A DNA stretch of 64,000 nucleotides from a plasmid (NZ_CP049149.1), one strand, 5' to 3'. Counted from the stretch's first letter, positions 11,754-62,225 are shown. Translations and numbers: made by a program. The notes: generated by a model from the letters alone, not told the origin.

Positions 11754-13094
11754 ATGACCGAACTTTGCCACACAGGACGAGGGTTGTCTGAAGAGTTCGA
11801 CGACGACTTCCAGAATCGACTCGCAGCCTACTTCTGTCGCGACCATGAATTTCTGACTCGCGCCGGTGATCTGGTTGCGCCAAACCAGTTCTCCAATGCG
11901 GCCAACGCCATTCTGGTGAACATGGTGTCGGGCTACTACAGAATGTATAAGAGCGCACCTTCGTCGTCGGCCATCCTCGACATGCTCAAACGCGCCAAAC
12001 GCGATAAGACGATCCGCGAAGAGCTGTTCCCCGATGTTGTAGAGGCGTTTAAGCGGATTCTCGCTGAGAAGCTGTCAGACACGGCGTACATGGTCGACCA
12101 GGTGGCCACATTCGCAAAAAGCGTAGCTTTCGACGACGCGCTGATTAAAGCGGCCGAAATGAAGGAGAAGGGCGATTTTCAGGGCGCGATGGCGATCATG
12201 GCCAAAGTTCAGCAGATTGGCTCGAACGAAGCCACCGGCATCTACGACTACTTCACCGCGGCCGGGGAGCGATACAAAGCGCGCGAGTATGAAGCCTCTG
12301 ATGATTATGTGCCAAACAGCATCACTACCGGTCTCCCACTGCTCGACAAATTGCTTTATCAGAAAGGCTGGGCGAAGCGTGAAATGGTTCTTTTTATGGG
12401 ATTCGCCAAGTCGGGCAAGTCAACGGCTATGGGGGAGTTCTCCATTAACGCCACGCTGGCGGGTTACAACGTGCTTTACCTGTCACTGGAGGTTCACACA
12501 TCAATCCTCTCTGACCGTTTCGACGCCCGTCTGTCAGAAACCGAAATGTCCAGACTGGTTGAACGCCGCGACGATGTGCATCGTAAGCTGGCAGAGCTGG
12601 GCGCGACCAAAGGCATCGGGAGCTTGTGGATTGTCGAGCGCCCGTCCGGAAGCATGTCGCCGGCAGATCTGGATCGTATGCTGGGCAGTATGAAGGCCAA
12701 TGGCATGATCCCCGATATGGTGGTGGTGGACTATGCCGACCTGATGCGCGCCAGCTACGACCTCCGCGATGACCGCGCCAATATCCGCAGCATCTACACA
12801 GATCTGCGTGCGCTCTATGACAAGCACAACGTGGCCGGTATTACCGCGTCCCAGACGAACAGGGAGGGTGGCGCCTCTGAGGTCGCAACAATGATGCACG
12901 CAGCTGACAACATCGAGAAGGTTCGTATCGCTGACCTTGTCATTACGATTAACAAAACCGAAGAAGAGGAGGCTAAAGGCGAAGCGCGGCTGTTTTTCGC
13001 TGGCTCACGTAACCAGAGAGGTGGGGTGAGTATTCGCGTTAAGCAGAACCTGGAGCAAATGCGCTTTATTGAACGCATTATGGATGTGATTTAA
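11754..13094 (+). CDS. DnaB-like replicative helicase
   Basis: Walker A GFAKSGKST and Walker B VVVDYADLM. RecA-like C-terminal domain with the arginine-finger region. 446 aa. Confidence 0.7.
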   Translation: MTELCHTGRGLSEEFDDDFQNRLAAYFCRDHEFLTRAGDLVAPNQFSNAANAILVNMVSGYYRMYKSAPSSSAILDMLKRAKRDKTIREELFPDVVEAFKRILAEKLSDTAYMVDQVATFAKSVAFDDALIKAAEMKEKGDFQGAMAIMAKVQQIGSNEATGIYDYFTAAGERYKAREYEASDDYVPNSITTGLPLLDKLLYQKGWAKREMVLFMGFAKSGKSTAMGEFSINATLAGYNVLYLSLEVHTSILSDRFDARLSETEMSRLVERRDDVHRKLAELGATKGIGSLWIVERPSGSMSPADLDRMLGSMKANGMIPDMVVVDYADLMRASYDLRDDRANIRSIYTDLRALYDKHNVAGITASQTNREGGASEVATMMHAADNIEKVRIADLVITINKTEEEEAKGEARLFFAGSRNQRGGVSIRVKQNLEQMRFIERIMDVI

Positions 13095-16337: not shown

Positions 16338-17660
16338 ATGGAAAAACTAATCGTTTTAAAGCACAAGCTGGATGACATAAAGCCAATGGGAACCAACGCC
16401 AAACGAGAGGCGCTGGCCAATATGGATGACTTCGAGCAAAGCATGGTTGCTCTGATGCTCAACCCGTTCATTCGATTCGGGGTGAAAAAGTACAAAGTGG
16501 CCGCACCGCTTGAAGCGTCTGTGCCCAGCGATCAGACGGTCGTTGAGCTTCTCGAAAAGCTGGCCTCTCGTGAACTAACCGGCAACGCCGCCATTACTGC
16601 GGTCGAGTCTTTGGTTGCCTCAATGTGCGCGGATGGGCAGGACGTATTTCGTCGCTTTCTGCTGAAAGATCCGAAAGCCGGCTTCGGCATTAGCCTCTGC
16701 AACAAGGTTTTCAGGACGCCCATCCCCAAGTTCGAGGTACAGCTGGCGTCTGCGTATAAGGAGAAAGGCGATAAGTACCCTTTCAAGCCAAACCCCAAAG
16801 CCAGATGGCCAATGATTGGGAGCCTTAAACTCGATGGTCTTCGTGTGATCTGCGAAGTCATTGTGGATGAGGAAGAGGTTAACTTTCTGTCACGCACCGG
16901 CAATCCGATTACATCACTGGATCACCTGAAACCAGCCATGCTGGAGCTAGGCAGACTTTCTGGCCACAAACACATCTTTTTTGATGGCGAGGGCACAGCT
17001 GGCTCCTTCAATGAATCGGTGTCGGCGCTGCGGAAGAAAAACGTGAAGGCAATTGGCGCGGTCTACCACGTCTTCGACTTTTTCCTTCCGGAGTGGCGCG
17101 CGATGGCCAAGTCCAAAGAGTACCTGAAGACGGGCATGAAGCTTAAAGAACGTCTGGCTCGCCTGGTGGAGTGGTTCCGCAATACCCGCGGTGAGGACTA
17201 CGCGCCAGATATCCATCTACACCCTTTCTACATCATCCACAGCCATGAAGAGTTCATCGAGCGTTTCATGAAGCGCCTGGATGCGAACGAAGAAGGCGAG
17301 ATGGGCAAAGATCCGGATTCTGTCTATGAGTTCAAGCGCACCCGCAGCTGGTGGAAGTTAAAGGATGAGGATTCCGAAGATGGCGAGATTATTGACTTTG
17401 AGGCAGGCGATCCGGATTCTGGCTTTGCGCATACGCTCGGCAAAATCGTGATTCGTCTGGAGAACGGCGTAGAGGTACGCGCCAGCGGCATTAAGCACAA
17501 GTATCTGGATGAAATCTGGAACAACCAGGGCAAATACCTCGGTCGCATCGTTGAGGTTCACTGCCACGAGAAAACGCCAGACGGAAGCCTGCGCCACCCG
17601 CGTCTGAAATGGCCGAATTGTCTGCGCGATACCGAAGATCGGATTGGAGATAAAGACTGA
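16338..17660 (+). CDS. ATP-dependent DNA ligase
   Basis: Adenylation motif I SLKLDGLRV (KxDG). 440 aa. RBS ggagg. Confidence 0.65.
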   Translation: MEKLIVLKHKLDDIKPMGTNAKREALANMDDFEQSMVALMLNPFIRFGVKKYKVAAPLEASVPSDQTVVELLEKLASRELTGNAAITAVESLVASMCADGQDVFRRFLLKDPKAGFGISLCNKVFRTPIPKFEVQLASAYKEKGDKYPFKPNPKARWPMIGSLKLDGLRVICEVIVDEEEVNFLSRTGNPITSLDHLKPAMLELGRLSGHKHIFFDGEGTAGSFNESVSALRKKNVKAIGAVYHVFDFFLPEWRAMAKSKEYLKTGMKLKERLARLVEWFRNTRGEDYAPDIHLHPFYIIHSHEEFIERFMKRLDANEEGEMGKDPDSVYEFKRTRSWWKLKDEDSEDGEIIDFEAGDPDSGFAHTLGKIVIRLENGVEVRASGIKHKYLDEIWNNQGKYLGRIVEVHCHEKTPDGSLRHPRLKWPNCLRDTEDRIGDKD

Positions 17661-20040: not shown

Positions 20041-20874
20041 GTGGAAGTCATGTGCGAGGCTAAGGGTCTGTCGCAACGTCGTGCCTGCAGGCTGGCAGGT
20101 CTGTCCCTGTCAACCTGCCGATATTCGGCTCAGCGTCCGGCTGCTGACGCGCAGCTGTCTCTACGCATCACAGAGCTGGCACTTGAACGCCGCCGTTTTG
20201 GTTACCGGCGTATCTGGCAGCTTCTGCGACGTGAAGGTCTTTGCGTTAACCACAAGCGGGTTTACCGCATCTATCAACTTAATGGCCTGAGTGTAAAACG
20301 CAGACGACGTCGTAAAGGGCTGGCAACAGAACGTCTGCCGCTGCTCCGCCCGATGGCGCCCAATCTGACCTGGTCAATGGATTTCGTCATGGACGCACTG
20401 GCCACAGGTCGCAGGATCAAGTGCCTGACCTGCGTGGATGATTTCACAAAGGAATGCCTGACGGTCACTGTTGCCTTCGGGATTTCAGGCGTGCAGGTCA
20501 CGCGTATTCTGGACAGCATTGCGCTGTTTCGCGGCTATCCGGCTACGATAAGAACCGATCAGGGCCCGGAGTTTACCTGCCGCGCACTCGATCAGTGGGC
20601 TTTTGAGCATGGTGTGGAGCTGCGACTTATCCAGCCCGGCAAGCCAACGCAGAACGGATTTATTGAGAGTTTTAACGGACGCTTTCGTGATGAATGCCTG
20701 AATGAGCACTGGTTCAGCGATATTGTTCACGCCAGGAAGATCATTAATGACTGGCGACTGGATTATAACGAGTGTCGACCACATTCATCACTGAATTACC
20801 TGACGCCGGCTGAATTTGCAGCGGGCTGGCGAAACGGGAAATATGAAGAAAAACCAACCGACATTACTAACTGA
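20041..20874 (+). CDS. IS3-family transposase OrfB (DDE integrase domain), -1 frame relative to orfA
   Basis: DDE catalytic region (..WSMDFV.., TDQGPEF, ..[12 protein letters not shown]). Its frame runs back into the orfA 3' end. Confidence 0.85.
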
Positions 20875-24275: not shown

Positions 24276-25379
24276 ATGAAAAACACCTTTGATAAAGCAC
24301 GCGCAGCCGAAAACACCTCACGCGAGGCCATTGCTTATCTCGAACGGGCAGCAGGCCTGACGGCGGTATCGACCATTAACCTGGATGGGGACATGCGGTT
24401 CTCATCGGCATTCATGTTATTCACTCGCTTATCTTTATTGATAACGAGACGTCGACCGGAGATAGCCGTCCATTGTGTTTTGATACATGTTATGCCACAC
24501 ATTGCTGATGTTAAGGTAAGTGACATCAATAGGGTACTGGTCAACCAGCTGGTAAACCCGCTGATCCTGGAGGGCAAGATTGTCCAGGGCAGACGTGTGT
24601 TCTCGCTGATGAAGCAGTTTCTTGGCTGGTGTGCATTTCAGGGTGTAATTGAAACCTCTCCGCTTAATGACATCTCTCTGAACAAAGTCGCCGGTGGCGC
24701 TAAGCCTGTGCCGCGGGAACGGAAGCTGACAGATGCCGAAGTGTGGGTGTTCTGGAACGTCTGGGATTACTTCAACGTTTGCGAAGGGACGAAATGGGCT
24801 GCCAGACTCTGTCTTGTAGCTGCCAGACGCCCTGATGAAGTGCTCCGCGCGAAGAAGAGCGAGTTTAACCTTCAGCGTGATGTATGGAATCAAGGCACCC
24901 GCAACAAATCGGGCCGACAGCACAGTCTCCCGTTAAGCCCCTTAATGCGGCAATGTGTTGAGAAACTGTTTGAGTACGGAAAGGGGAGCCAATGGCTTGT
25001 CCCGTCGAACAAGAAGCGCGGCGAGGATGTGCCAATGTCTAAGGTGGCCATAGCGCAGTCATTGCGTAGGATTCTGGAGCGTCCTGAAATGATGGAGTTA
25101 GAGCCGTTCACCCCACGCGATTTGCGAAGAACCGCGCGCAGCTACTTTCCGGCTCTAGGGATCAGTCAGGAAGTCGCTCGTAAGATAATGAACCACAGCC
25201 TTGAGGGAATCGACCGTGTCTACGACCGCCACGACTATATTGAGGAGATGCGAGACGCCTTAGACAGTTTCTCGGCGCACATCGCATCCATCGTGGAACA
25301 GCCAGACCTGGACGAAATTGACCACAAATTTAAAGGTGATCGTCTTGCCACTGAGCTTATTCGCGTGAATTTCTCATAG
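24276..25379 (+). CDS. Tyrosine site-specific recombinase (Cre/XerD-like; probable dimer resolvase or integrase)
   Basis: C-terminal catalytic R..H-x-x-R..Y pattern (PRDLRRTARSYF, HSLEGIDRVYDRHDY). 367 aa. Confidence 0.7.
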   Translation: MKNTFDKARAAENTSREAIAYLERAAGLTAVSTINLDGDMRFSSAFMLFTRLSLLITRRRPEIAVHCVLIHVMPHIADVKVSDINRVLVNQLVNPLILEGKIVQGRRVFSLMKQFLGWCAFQGVIETSPLNDISLNKVAGGAKPVPRERKLTDAEVWVFWNVWDYFNVCEGTKWAARLCLVAARRPDEVLRAKKSEFNLQRDVWNQGTRNKSGRQHSLPLSPLMRQCVEKLFEYGKGSQWLVPSNKKRGEDVPMSKVAIAQSLRRILERPEMMELEPFTPRDLRRTARSYFPALGISQEVARKIMNHSLEGIDRVYDRHDYIEEMRDALDSFSAHIASIVEQPDLDEIDHKFKGDRLATELIRVNFS

Positions 25380-42382: not shown

Positions 42383-42717
42383 AAACACGGCTTGCTCTGG
42401 CTGTTTTGCTCTTATCCCATTCCATTTCTGCTGACACTCGCATTTATGAGTGCGAGATGTCTGTGGCCGAAACAAAAAAAGACACGCTGACAAACGTCGT
42501 TAAAGCGCCCTATGGAGCGATGGTTGTGGATAGCGGGGAGCAATTTTACATCGTTCGCGATGACCGCGTTTTGTCCTCTCCTTACCTTACAAGACGCGAC
42601 AACAAACTGACCGGCGTCGGTGAGGACAAGCTTGTTTACAACAAATCAGGTGATAGCTACGGCGTTCACGCAAAGGACGCCAGTTACCTTTTCGATGACT
42701 GCAAGGAGGTTGGTTAA
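42379..42717 (+). CDS. Secreted hypothetical protein (signal peptide)
   Basis: MKTRLALAVLLLSHSISA signal peptide. 112 aa. Confidence 0.4.
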   Translation: MKTRLALAVLLLSHSISADTRIYECEMSVAETKKDTLTNVVKAPYGAMVVDSGEQFYIVRDDRVLSSPYLTRRDNKLTGVGEDKLVYNKSGDSYGVHAKDASYLFDDCKEVG

Positions 42718-42929
42718 TGGCGATGACACTGACAGGTCTGGAAATCGAAAAAACGAGCGGCTACTGGCGCGCCAAAGGATTCAGAAAGTCCGATGTGATG
42801 GAGCGCCTGGAGCGTGAAGACGGCTTTATAGTCCACCAGCGTCGCGAATGGCGCATGTACGATCCGGAAAGCGGAAAGCTCACATCCAAAGCACAAACCC
42901 TCTGGGGGCTGCTGAAAAAAATCATCTGA
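42717..42929 (+). CDS. Hypothetical protein
   Basis: 70-aa ORF coupled by ATGA. Confidence 0.3.
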   Translation: MAMTLTGLEIEKTSGYWRAKGFRKSDVMERLEREDGFIVHQRREWRMYDPESGKLTSKAQTLWGLLKKII

Positions 42930-43001
42930 TCCATTATCCACTATGGGAAGAACCACTTCCCATAGTGGTTATCTTGCCCGTAATAGCAACATCATAGCGC
43001 C

Positions 43002-43165
43002 TACCGCTGACAGCATACGTTTGTCTAAATTCGCCCCATTTTTACCGCTGACAGCATATCTTTTAGTCGCTCAATTTACCGCTGACAGCATACGTTATGA
43101 CCACAAGACAAGGTTTACCGCTCACAGCATATCCAAACATCACCTCATACCGCTGGCAGCATATC
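43002..43165. repeat. Iteron array (5 copies of the 18-bp TACCGCTGACAGCATA(T/C)(C/G) unit, 32-41-bp spacing): distal copy-control (incA-like) repeats
   Basis: Copies begin at about 43002, 43043, 43077, 43116 and 43148. Confidence 0.7.
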
Positions 43166-43369
43166 GACGTTTTTCGCCTCTGTGGGCGCTCTATCAGGAC
43201 GAGAAAAACAATCAAGTTAGTGAGTGCAAACCCTTATTTCATGCGGCTTGCGGGGTTAGTGACCACTGGGGAAGTTGTCGCGGGAAATGGGATCGAAGAG
43301 GCGCGCAGACCAGATAACGGCGGGCTAATGAGCAAAATCGCCCGCTGATATCATACATTTTCTAAAAAT

Positions 43370-43481
43370 TACCGCTCACAGCATATCTTTTTGCCGCTGA
43401 CAGCATACTTAATGTGAAAAATACCGCTGACAGCATATCTTGTACCGCTGGTAGCATACGTTTTACCGCTGACAGCATATC
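43370..43481. repeat. Iteron array (5 copies, 21-30-bp spacing) immediately 3' of repA (incA-like)
   Basis: Copies begin at about 43370, 43392, 43422, 43443 and 43464. The last copy overlaps the repA stop codon. Confidence 0.75.
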
Positions 43482-44580
43482 AAAGGAGTTTCAGGCTGTT
43501 GGAGAGAATCTCGATCAGCTTGATGTTTTCGGGCGTCAGGTTCTGCGATAACTCGGTGATTTTGTTCACGAGGTTTTGTTTTGCATCGACACCAGAAGAC
43601 GTGCTCTCGACCGGCTTATCCGGAAGCGCGGGCATTTCCTCTTTGACCGAAGAGGCTTTGAGCTTGGGATTGCGGCTGTGGATCTGAATGTAAATCGAGC
43701 GGCCACGCTTAATCTCGCTGTATTCGAGATAGCCCAATTCCTCCAGCGTTTTTAAGCCGTTGCGGATGGTCTGATTCTGCGAGCTGACGTTACGACTACT
43801 CAAATTAAGTCTGGCTCGAAGCCTTGCCAGCGATACTGGTGCCGGTTTGGCTGGAAGACTTTCGATGAACGTATACAGCGCCTGGGCGGTCTCTTTGCGC
43901 GGCAGCTTGTTAATGACTTTTAGCTGGAGCAGCACTTTGTGGTCGAAGCGATAGAGTTCGGCCAGCTTCGGCTCTGCGTGAAAGATGATGGAGTCTTTTT
44001 GCTCGTTGTAATCGACGCTGTTCACCAGGTGAACCATCAGGAGCGAGATTTTGTTCGAGCCGTCGACGTTCTTTTCTTCATACGTGCGCTGGAAAGAGAG
44101 CGTGGTGCGCATGATCTTCAGGAGGCTGTTGGTGAGCCTGTCACGCAGCGTCTTGCGGATCTGCGACGACGGATAGCCGCAGAATTTGGCGAACTTGGTA
44201 ATGCTCAACTCGACGCGGCCACTCGGCTCCCCGTACTCGGCCAGAGAGCGAACGACGCCGACCCACGTTTTAAAATCGTGATCCATATCCAGGCGTGGAC
44301 CTGTTATCTTGATGTCGGAATACCCTTCTGAACGAGCAACCTCCAGCTGAACCAGTTCTTTTGAGGCGTCGATCTCATTAGGTCTGTTCCGCTTGCTGTT
44401 CTTTGTTCCCTTTAGCGTGGGCACGAACAAACCAAGCCTCATCAACGCTATAGGCTGAACAGTATTGTTGCTGTTTGGAACAAGATCGCCTGTGTATAGT
44501 TCGAGGGATTCTTCTTCAAAATTATCTATACTGTCGTCTAACACATTGTTTTTGGTTTCTTTTTTCTTTCGAGTGGGCAT
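43480..44580 (-). CDS. repA: RepA replication initiator (P1 RepA / RepFIB-like)
   Basis: Flanked on both sides by iterons. By recollection of P1 RepA, NSNNTVQPIALMRLGLFVP...DIKITGPRLDMD...YTFIESLP...HSRNPKLK correspond to P1 RepA segments. Start taken as MPTRKKK (44580). Confidence 0.75.
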   Translation of the reverse strand: MPTRKKKETKNNVLDDSIDNFEEESLELYTGDLVPNSNNTVQPIALMRLGLFVPTLKGTKNSKRNRPNEIDASKELVQLEVARSEGYSDIKITGPRLDMDHDFKTWVGVVRSLAEYGEPSGRVELSITKFAKFCGYPSSQIRKTLRDRLTNSLLKIMRTTLSFQRTYEEKNVDGSNKISLLMVHLVNSVDYNEQKDSIIFHAEPKLAELYRFDHKVLLQLKVINKLPRKETAQALYTFIESLPAKPAPVSLARLRARLNLSSRNVSSQNQTIRNGLKTLEELGYLEYSEIKRGRSIYIQIHSRNPKLKASSVKEEMPALPDKPVESTSSGVDAKQNLVNKITELSQNLTPENIKLIEILSNSLKLL

Positions 44581-44600
44581 GTTGACACCTTTCCGCTTCC

Positions 44601-44704
44601 AACCGCTGACAGCATACGTTATTTGCCGTTGGCAGCATACCAAAAACAGATGGCAGCATATCGCTTACCGCTGACAGCATATCGCTTACCGCTGACAGCA
44701 TACG
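44601..44704. repeat. Origin iterons (5 copies, about 21-23-bp spacing) upstream of repA
   Basis: AACCGCTGACAGCATACG, a degenerate TTGCCGTTGGCAGCATACC, a degenerate GATGGCAGCATATCG, then TACCGCTGACAGCATATC and TACCGCTGACAGCATACG. Confidence 0.75.
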
Positions 44705-44743
44705 CGAATACCCGTTGAGGCCAGGCGTGGCGCGGTCTGCGAG

Positions 44744-44816
44744 GATCGGGGATCTCTTTTGATCTATATAGGGATCTATACGGGATCTAATTAATAGGAT
44801 CTACCCTGTGGATAAT
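44744..44816. promoter_or_regulatory. Origin-associated GATC cluster (six GATC in about 55 bp as (G)GATCT(A) heptamer-like repeats) followed by a consensus DnaA box TGTGGATAA
   Basis: ggatcggggatctcttttgatctatatagggatctatacgggatctaattaataggatctaccctgTGTGGATAAtg. The layout parallels P1 oriR. Confidence 0.6.
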
Positions 44817-44902
44817 GTGAATAACTAAAACAGGCGTTTGCGAACATTGCCGTACTTCATGCGCTATGTTTGCGGCGAGCAACAATAACGTGAATTAAGA
44901 AT

Positions 44903-45547
44903 ATGGATCTAAAACGCACACGCTGGGTACGCCGCCTTGAGGATGGCTCCTACACCATTGAGTCAAACACCAACCTGAACAAGCAGAAGCTCCTCTGTGA
45001 ACTGTGTGGCATTGCTTCCAAATGTCCGATTAACGAAGCGCGCATAAAACTACATGAGGCAGGCGCCCACTTTCACCTGAATAGCTGCATCAGATACGTG
45101 CCTCTGCTGGCATTTCGCAAACCGATCATCGGATTAGACGCGCCCTACTTCAACACGCTGCGCTCTGGCGTGACATGGCGAGACCGCGTCGAACCAGGAA
45201 AGCTTGTTTGTCTGGTGGAGGCTGATACTGGAAAGATCATCCGGTTTGGCAAAGTGGACAAGGTCTATTCCGGGCCGGTGGATGAGATGCTGCGTAAACA
45301 CAGCCGGTTCAACCATCTGTGTATGGGCGGAGAGAAGATCGAGAAGGTGAGCGAAGTTATCCGCAAATCTTACGGACACTTTCTCAAAGACGACAGCCTG
45401 CTGACGGCCATTTACGTCAAACACCTCGACCGGGAGTTCGACACCGAATATCACAGCGAGGAAGAGCTACATCTCGTTGACCCACGTCCAAAAGCAGGGG
45501 TGATCGACATCAACATAGCGCGTCAGAAGCCCTCAGAGACGATTTAA
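44903..45547 (+). CDS. Hypothetical protein
   Basis: 214-aa ORF with a CxxC pair. The first gene after the origin. Confidence 0.4.
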   Translation: MDLKRTRWVRRLEDGSYTIESNTNLNKQKLLCELCGIASKCPINEARIKLHEAGAHFHLNSCIRYVPLLAFRKPIIGLDAPYFNTLRSGVTWRDRVEPGKLVCLVEADTGKIIRFGKVDKVYSGPVDEMLRKHSRFNHLCMGGEKIEKVSEVIRKSYGHFLKDDSLLTAIYVKHLDREFDTEYHSEEELHLVDPRPKAGVIDINIARQKPSETI

Positions 45548-61619: not shown

Positions 61620-62225
61620 ATGGAAAGAGCAATGATTGCAGCTGAAAAAATCAAAAAGCGAGAGCGAGATGCCTCTCTTCGAGACCTTTGGCGCACTCCC
61701 AAATGGTTGTTTATCGCCATCCAACGATATATAGGCGCCGAGTTCGATGTGGACGTCGCCTGCAACAAGGATAACGCGTTACTGCCCAACTACATCGGCG
61801 TTGAACGTGATGCCCTGAAAAGCAGCTGGGGTGAGCCTGGCACCGTGGCATTTCTAAACCCGCCCTACTCCCGGATATCTCCTTGGATCGACGCGGCCAT
61901 TCGGGAGCAGGCGCGTGGCGTAACGACAGTCATGCTGATCCCACAGTCCCTCGATACCCAATGGTATGAACGCGCCACTGAGTGCGCCAACGAGACCGTT
62001 ATTCTGTCTGGCGGCCGTGTGGCGTTTGTGGAGCCGGATGTCGAGCTGGGGCTGGTGGAGGTCAACGTGAATCCCGGTGGCAGTATGCTGGTCATCTTCC
62101 GTGGGTTTTGTCAGGAAGCTGGGCATGTCATCAGCAAGATACCGCTGGCGGTGATGAAAAAGCTGGGTGGTTATGATCCTGCCAATGTCATCAGAAAGAA
62201 AAGACCAGTTAAGAAGGCAGCTTGA
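61620..62225 (+). CDS. dam: Phage-type DNA N6-adenine methyltransferase (Dam family)
   Basis: FLNPPYS (N/DPPY catalytic motif). About 200 aa, typical of the phage Dam family. Coordinates are taken from the ORF track; counting sequence lines by hand puts the ATG at 61621, one base later than the track, which I could not reconcile. Confidence 0.6.
   Translation: MERAMIAAEKIKKRERDASLRDLWRTPKWLFIAIQRYIGAEFDVDVACNKDNALLPNYIGVERDALKSSWGEPGTVAFLNPPYSRISPWIDAAIREQARGVTTVMLIPQSLDTQWYERATECANETVILSGGRVAFVEPDVELGLVEVNVNPGGSMLVIFRGFCQEAGHVISKIPLAVMKKLGGYDPANVIRKKRPVKKAA

Follow-up and report, generated by a model that had tools for sequence, protein, structure and literature searches.

A 64,000-nucleotide stretch of plasmid NZ_CP049149.1 (the window, with positions counted from its first letter) contains, at 42990–44820, a compact replicon in which the initiator gene repA is preceded by an origin and flanked on both sides by arrays of short repeats (iterons). 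We consider it very probable that this is the replicon by which an SSU5-like Cronobacter siphovirus phage-plasmid maintains itself as a plasmid prophage, and that it belongs to the P1/RepFIB iteron family. Nine records of circular plasmids, eight of 100–111 kb and one of 51.6 kb, match the 2-kb replicon region at 97–99.6% identity, their hosts being Cronobacter sakazakii, C. malonaticus, Citrobacter and Enterobacter. Among these plasmids are pH322_1, pGK1025B_1 and pCS1, which have been described as SSU5-like phage-plasmids, with their repA placed in IncFIB subgroups (PMC9169379). A preliminary description of the sequence had proposed that the element is maintained extrachromosomally, and this is supported since near-identical DNA has been deposited as circular plasmids of 100–110 kb. 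Proteins encoded next to the replicon are 78–92% identical to those of phage SSU5, and the window holds phage structural genes (tail-tip protein, tail fibre) along with genes for a DnaB-like helicase, an ATP-dependent ligase, PhoH, a tyrosine integrase and an IS3 transposase. The SSU5-like flanking proteins, the phage genes and the near-identical circular plasmids together make the element a member of the SSU5 supergroup of phage-plasmids (PMC7969092).

A P1/RepFIB-type replicon would explain the persistence of the Cronobacter phage-plasmid as that of a low-copy plasmid prophage. The kind of replicon is a textbook one, the family of elements has already been published, and the understanding of iteron replicons is unchanged. 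The gain is a slightly better annotation, including that of the repA start, which is often misplaced at an upstream TTG, and an origin map fuller than the published descriptions of the clade, which give four iterons, no RepA domain, or the IncFIB subgroup alone.

The RepA initiator

The replicon region contains a single long open reading frame (ORF), located on the minus strand (43480–44643), in which we place repA (Table 1). No strand had been named for the gene in the preliminary description, but its use of the words upstream and downstream fits the minus strand, and the repA ORF is intact. In the automatic annotation of relatives repA begins at an upstream TTG, which gives a protein of 404–407 amino acids (aa) and makes the gene run across the iterons of the origin (the extension corresponds to 44581–44643 in the window). 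A start at the ATG at 44580, which an AAAGGTG ribosome-binding site precedes by 5 nt, is more plausible; it yields 366 aa, and an identical 366-aa coding sequence is annotated in CP078107, a 97% identical relative. In PLSDB, the gene tables of several RefSeq entries for the closest relatives contain no repA.

RepA was compared with the initiators of P1, P7, SSU5 and IncFIB plasmids, the records of pHCM2 and pMT1 being left aside. A BLAST comparison with P1 RepA, which the preliminary description had suggested as a check, reveals clear homology (47% identity over 277 aa, E = 2e-86, BLASTP). In tblastn searches the RepA proteins of P1 and P7 are found at E values of about 5e-65, the range for P1, P7 and SSU5 together being 1e-65 to 1e-79; identity to SSU5 RepA is 45%. 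More than 5000 PLSDB plasmids, mostly IncFIB, encode homologues with 45–51% identity. The Pfam family PF01051 is present in all 120 homologues listed of 478 in a large protein collection, and RepA itself matches Rep3_N (WH1) at residues 119–239 with an E value of 7.7e-9, above the curated cutoff. NCBIfam has no family for RepA, and a search of the PDB with its sequence returned no match.

An AlphaFold model based on 40 homologues (mean predicted local distance difference test score, pLDDT, 74; mostly >80 in the core, residues 70–300) finds its best PDB matches by Foldseek in domains 2–3 of RctB (E = 4e-8), F RepE, TrfA and isolated WH1 domains, so that RepA models as a tandem winged-helix (WH1–WH2, Rep_3-type) iteron initiator. 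RctB, the initiator of Vibrio cholerae chromosome 2 (origin ori2) and the top structural match, has no detectable sequence similarity to RepA. Like the replicon described here ori2 is an iteron origin; binding of RctB depends on Dam methylation and control is by handcuffing (PMC6090056). RctB is much larger than RepA, however, and ori2 uses 39-mers and crtS. At its C-terminus RepA extends 58 aa past the end of P1 RepA, in a predicted helical tail common to RepFIB-type proteins.

Iteron arrays

Iterons were searched with the 18-mer TACCGCTGACAGCATAYS, allowing up to three mismatches, and the background was taken from 100 shuffles. There are 14 matches in the window, all on the plus strand and all inside 43002–44704, while 0.16 are expected in shuffled sequence and none of the 100 shuffles reaches 14. 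A fifteenth, degenerate copy at 44645–44662 completes an origin set of five, with starts at 44601, 44624, 44645, 44666 and 44687 (spacing 23, 21, 21 and 21); counted in the direction of repA, the third and fourth copies are degenerate, the third the most, as in P1. Beyond repA, the proximal control cluster has starts at 43370, 43392, 43422, 43443 and 43464 (spacing 22, 30, 21 and 21), and its first copy in the direction of repA (43464–43481) overlaps the stop codon of the gene (43480–43482) by 2 nt. The distal cluster has starts at 43002, 43043, 43077, 43116 and 43148 (spacing 41, 34, 39 and 32). Together with a degenerate copy in the gap between the clusters (about 43341–43358), this gives 10 clear iterons and one degenerate downstream of repA, in two clusters and every one of them direct. 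All three groups had been picked out in the preliminary description, and we recover each: five copies immediately upstream of repA at 21–23-bp spacing (44600–44704), five after the gene at 21–30 bp with the last overlapping the stop codon (43370–43481), and five looser ones, at 32–41 bp, further downstream (43002–43165).

Among relatives that are 97–99% identical the repA-proximal cluster gains or loses 21-bp units, which results in totals of 9, 10, 11 or 12 control iterons. In the same relatives neither the origin iterons nor the distal ones, five in each set, show any variation, and the six GATC sites and the DnaA boxes are likewise invariant. Over larger distances the repeat itself changes: the iteron core is different in SSU5, P1 and IncFIB replicons and the same in the E. 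coli and Klebsiella clades, whose RepA is 84–90% identical. By these comparisons iteron sequence tracks the divergence of RepA.

The gap in the control array also contains a non-iteron element of roughly 60 bp (43215–43267) with two GTTAGTGA motifs 39 bp apart. It is present in E. coli pSTEC409_1 and in the Klebsiella relatives and was not found in the P1, SSU5, JK004 and IncFIB loci. There is a slim chance that it is a site for a phage or host regulator coupling plasmid copy control to the lysis–lysogeny state; if such a regulator did bind here, the variation in the number of proximal iterons would amount to a natural copy-number dial. We do not count an 83-aa ORF (43097–43348) and other small iteron-overlapping ORFs as genes, because their starts lie inside repeats and the region carries indels in relatives.

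The origin core

The outer edge of the origin is formed by two tandem DnaA boxes. The perfect one, TGTGGATAA at 44807–44815, had been noticed from the start and is the sole perfect box of the window; a second, TGTGAATAA at 44816–44824, abuts it. The relaxed DnaA consensus by itself is not above chance in the window (6 found versus 5.1 expected), and the boxes carry weight because of their position and conservation rather than because of match count: the columns they occupy are conserved in each of the eight replicons aligned, and in P1, one of the eight, the annotation gives the site as bound by DnaA. Next to the boxes lie six GATC sites in 58 bp (44744–44801), while any other 60-bp stretch of the window holds at most three. 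When the same number of sites was placed at random, six or more fell together in 1 of 2000 trials, so the GATC cluster upstream of the origin iterons, also part of the preliminary description, is beyond chance. In the alignment with P1 oriR the heptamer stretch falls opposite the five Dam sites annotated there, and by analogy it is likely to be the Dam/SeqA-sensitive region at which the origin opens. The GC-rich spacer that follows is identical to that of P1, TTGCAGGCCGCGCCACGTCTGGC, at 20 of 23 positions.

For these comparisons eight origins were aligned with MAFFT, namely those of the window, the E. coli and Klebsiella relatives, SSU5, P1, the Cronobacter phage JK004 and two IncFIB plasmids. 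DnaA boxes, heptamers and GC spacer align at the nucleotide level, and the DnaA-box and heptamer columns are invariant in all eight. Over the 106 bp of the origin core, identity is 74% with P1 oriR and 57–85% with the six other members of the family. Because of the nucleotide-level alignment and the 74% identity over 106 bp the origin is, as judged by sequence, homologous to P1 oriR, beyond mere likeness of plan. An Rfam scan of 42600–45000 (E ≤ 1) detected no RNA family, and therefore there is no sign of control by antisense RNA.

Table 1. Features of the replicon and other genes in the window
Feature	Position	Strand	Remarks
DnaA boxes, two in tandem	44807–44824	−	Outer edge of origin; in repA-strand order TTATTCACA, TTATCCACA
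GATC heptamer region	44741–44804	−	Six GATC: TAGATCC (three times), TAGATCA, GAGATCC, CCGATCC; 59% A+T
GC-rich spacer	44720–44742	−	TCGCAGACCGCGCCACGCCTGGC on the repA strand; between heptamers and iterons
Origin iterons (P1 incC equivalent)	44600–44704	−	Five direct 19-mers, GATATGCTGTCAGCGGTAA
Candidate repA promoter	44616–44643	−	TTGGTA, 16 nt, TAACGT; within origin iterons; positional match to P1 PrepA
repA	43480–44580	−	366 aa, intact; predicted iteron-binding initiator; ATG at 44580
repA-proximal control iterons	43370–43481	−	Five direct copies, spacing 21–30 bp
Gap within control array	43166–43369	.	About 200 bp; one degenerate iteron and a conserved non-iteron element
Distal control iterons	43002–43165	−	Five direct copies, spacing 32–41 bp
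DnaB-like helicase	11754–13094		
ATP-dependent DNA ligase	16338–17660		
IS3-family transposase	20041–20874		
Tyrosine integrase	24276–25379		
Dam-family N6-adenine methyltransferase	61620–62225	+	Pfam PF05869, E = 7.4e-38; outside the replicon

Comparison with P1 and RepFIB replicons

The annotated P1 record (AF234172) lists a DnaA site, five Dam sites, five incC iterons with the promoter PrepA, repA, nine incA iterons beginning at the stop codon, and parAB. The parts of the present replicon follow in the same order, and when both are oriented alike they stand at nearly equal offsets. Tandem DnaA boxes, TAGATCC-type heptamers (six here, five in P1) and the GC spacer are common to both, as are five direct origin iterons of about 19 bp, spaced 21, 21, 21 and 22 in P1 incC and 21, 21, 21 and 23 here. 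The first downstream iteron overlaps the stop codon by 1 nt in P1 and by 2 nt here, and the distal cluster, with its spacing of 32–41 bp, resembles P1 incA (31–41 bp). With RepA 47% and the origin core 74% identical to P1, and with order and spacing of the map in agreement, the P1/RepFIB architecture that had been read from the sequence holds. RepFIB (IncFIB) replicons share the plan of DnaA box, GATC sites, iterons, repA and again iterons, along with the C-terminal tail of a RepA that is 45–51% identical. They have another iteron sequence, their origin core is only 57–63% identical, and they are carried by conjugative plasmids, whereas the carrier here is a phage-plasmid. The Klebsiella sister clade is typed as IncFIB by MOB-suite.

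Several observations weigh against the assignment. The nine incA iterons of P1 are contiguous, three direct and six inverted, while the 10–11 control copies here are all direct and split between two clusters; some inverted downstream copies are found in P1, JK004, SSU5 and IncFIB(S), and none here. P1 has three DnaA boxes between the iterons and repA, where the present replicon has none. A consensus scan found no sigma-70 promoter in or near the origin iterons, and the positional analogue of PrepA, TTGGTA-16-TAACGT, is a weak match that was assigned by its position relative to the P1 annotation alone and is poorly conserved in the Klebsiella relative. In P1 the array is followed by parAB; here it is not, and no homologues of P1 ParA or ParB were found in the 64-kb window (tblastn, E ≤ 0.01), so the partition system is either of another type or located outside the window. 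Finally, the element encodes its own DnaE, DnaB-like helicase and ligase, and for this reason a separate lytic origin must exist, with a possible role in the plasmid state.

A relative further encodes DnaE, NrdAB, ThyA and a recombinase, and the helicase and ligase together with DnaE, NrdAB and ThyA of the relative mean that the phage carries an extensive replication module apart from the plasmid replicon. With DnaE, the DnaB-like helicase, ligase and RNase H at its disposal the element might keep its plasmid state from another origin, through its own replisome genes, and the RepA/iteron unit would then be vestigial. We regard this as most improbable. The repA gene is intact and conserved, encoding 366 aa in all seven close relatives, in which origin iterons, the six GATC sites and the DnaA boxes do not vary, and the arrangement is also conserved across SSU5 and the E. 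coli and Klebsiella relatives. Relative to the E. coli relative RepA is 89% identical as a protein and about 78% as DNA, the pattern that purifying selection would give. Our preferred reading remains that of a maintenance replicon of the P1/RepFIB family.

It should be noted that membership in the family does not extend to a close copy of P1. The family named in the preliminary description stands, and the design differs from that of P1: the iterons are direct and split, there is no P1-type par in the window, and RepA is longer (366 aa versus 286 aa in P1). The P1 iteron is GATGTGTGCTGGAGGGAAA as against GATATGCTGTCAGCGGTAA here, and the carrier of the P1 replicon is a myovirus, not an SSU5-like siphovirus. 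As far as sequence allows a prediction, P1 (IncY) specificity is not expected, because the iteron core differs, all copies are direct and P1 ParA/ParB are lacking in the window.

Proposed mode of replication control

The mechanism of P1 oriR is known from the work of Abeles, Austin, Brendler, Chattoraj and Wickner. This work, the feature notes of the P1 record and the general literature on iterons (PMC5397158, PMC6090056) were used to draw a model for the replicon. What the sequence shows is how the replicon is built, that RepA and the origin core are homologous to their P1 counterparts, that RepA is predicted to have a winged-helix fold, and that the element occurs as circular plasmids; each biochemical step of the model, like the promoter, is conditional, and the promoter is its least secure part. 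RepA monomers would occupy the five direct origin iterons and host DnaA the tandem boxes, and the two proteins would jointly open the A+T-rich heptamer region between them, where the host replisome would load. Firing would require all six GATC sites to be fully methylated by Dam, and just after replication SeqA would hold them in the hemimethylated state and so limit re-initiation. RepA bound to the origin iterons would also repress its own promoter. The 10–11 downstream iterons would reduce copy number in two ways, by titrating RepA and by handcuffing, in which RepA would pair them with iterons of the origin either in cis or on a sister copy. Handcuffing, dependence on Dam and SeqA, and autoregulation are all features that we infer by analogy.

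The form of the control array leaves some room for another explanation, in which the downstream iterons do no more than soak up RepA (titration), or in which each cluster has a job of its own, and control is not by P1-type handcuffing. About 200 bp, with a conserved non-iteron element among them, separate the two clusters, copy number varies among close relatives in the proximal cluster only, and the control iterons are all direct, unlike those of P1. Titration and handcuffing are not mutually exclusive, however, the distal cluster keeps the spacing of P1 incA, and both RepA and the origin are homologous to those of P1, whose record AF234172 describes RepA as pairing sites. A purely passive or divided array thus seems unlikely to us, and control that includes handcuffing is the reading we favour.

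Another question concerns methylation. The preliminary description had pointed to a Dam-family methylase encoded by the element itself (61620–62225), and the family is confirmed by the PF05869 match; in pH322_1 the counterpart is annotated as a phage N-6-adenine-methyltransferase. Given such an enzyme and six GATC sites in the origin, one can imagine that the phage protein keeps these sites methylated and makes replication independent of host Dam. The PF05869 match speaks to the family of the enzyme, however, and not to GATC specificity or to expression in the plasmid state, and the window as a whole shows no enrichment or depletion of GATC (258 sites versus 273 expected). Enterobacterial hosts possess dam and seqA, which also counts against such independence. 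So does the example of P1, which encodes a Dam-like enzyme, yet whose plasmid origin needs host Dam. Independence from host Dam is thus speculation, and we think it improbable; dependence on the host enzyme, as in P1, is what the model assumes.

An exchanged specificity cassette

Within the SSU5 supergroup we compared SSU5/pHCM2, the E. coli pSLy3-type, the Klebsiella pKPHS1-type ('IncpKPHS1') and the Cronobacter pCS1/pH322_1 elements. For the sister IncpKPHS1 group, a published description gives four iterons downstream and a RepA with no known domain (PMC6735626). SSU5 has the backbone in common with the present element and a different specificity module, with the iteron core CCACTGTAGTGAG and some of the downstream copies inverted. 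Coming from the side of the divergent 214-aa ORF, nucleotide homology to SSU5 (77–82%) runs through this ORF, the DnaA boxes and the heptamers and ends at about 44741; it is back exactly at 42929, the stop codon of a convergent 70-aa ORF. Between these two points the iterons are different and RepA shares only 45% identity with its SSU5 counterpart. Since such divergence lies between conserved flanks (78–92% identical proteins), the iteron–repA–iteron cassette is, by sequence comparison, an exchanged specificity module in a conserved SSU5 backbone, with one junction inside the shared origin core.

A swappable cassette of this kind leads to predictions on compatibility. The element should coexist with SSU5/pHCM2 and with P1, and incompatibility is likely with the E. 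coli pSLy3-type and Klebsiella pKPHS1-type elements.

Two features next to the cassette can be added. The 214-aa ORF (44903–45547, plus strand) points away from the origin, belongs to no Pfam family and is 92% identical to SSU5_070. It keeps its position in SSU5 and in the E. coli and Klebsiella relatives whatever their type of RepA, and may serve the replicon as an accessory. On the other side, directly 3' of the stop codon that ends the convergent 70-aa ORF (42717–42929), there is a hairpin with 16-nt arms (42935–42971) that looks like a terminator. The hairpin holds TTATCCACT, which is one mismatch away from a DnaA box and similar to the SSU5 iteron core TATCCACTGTAG.

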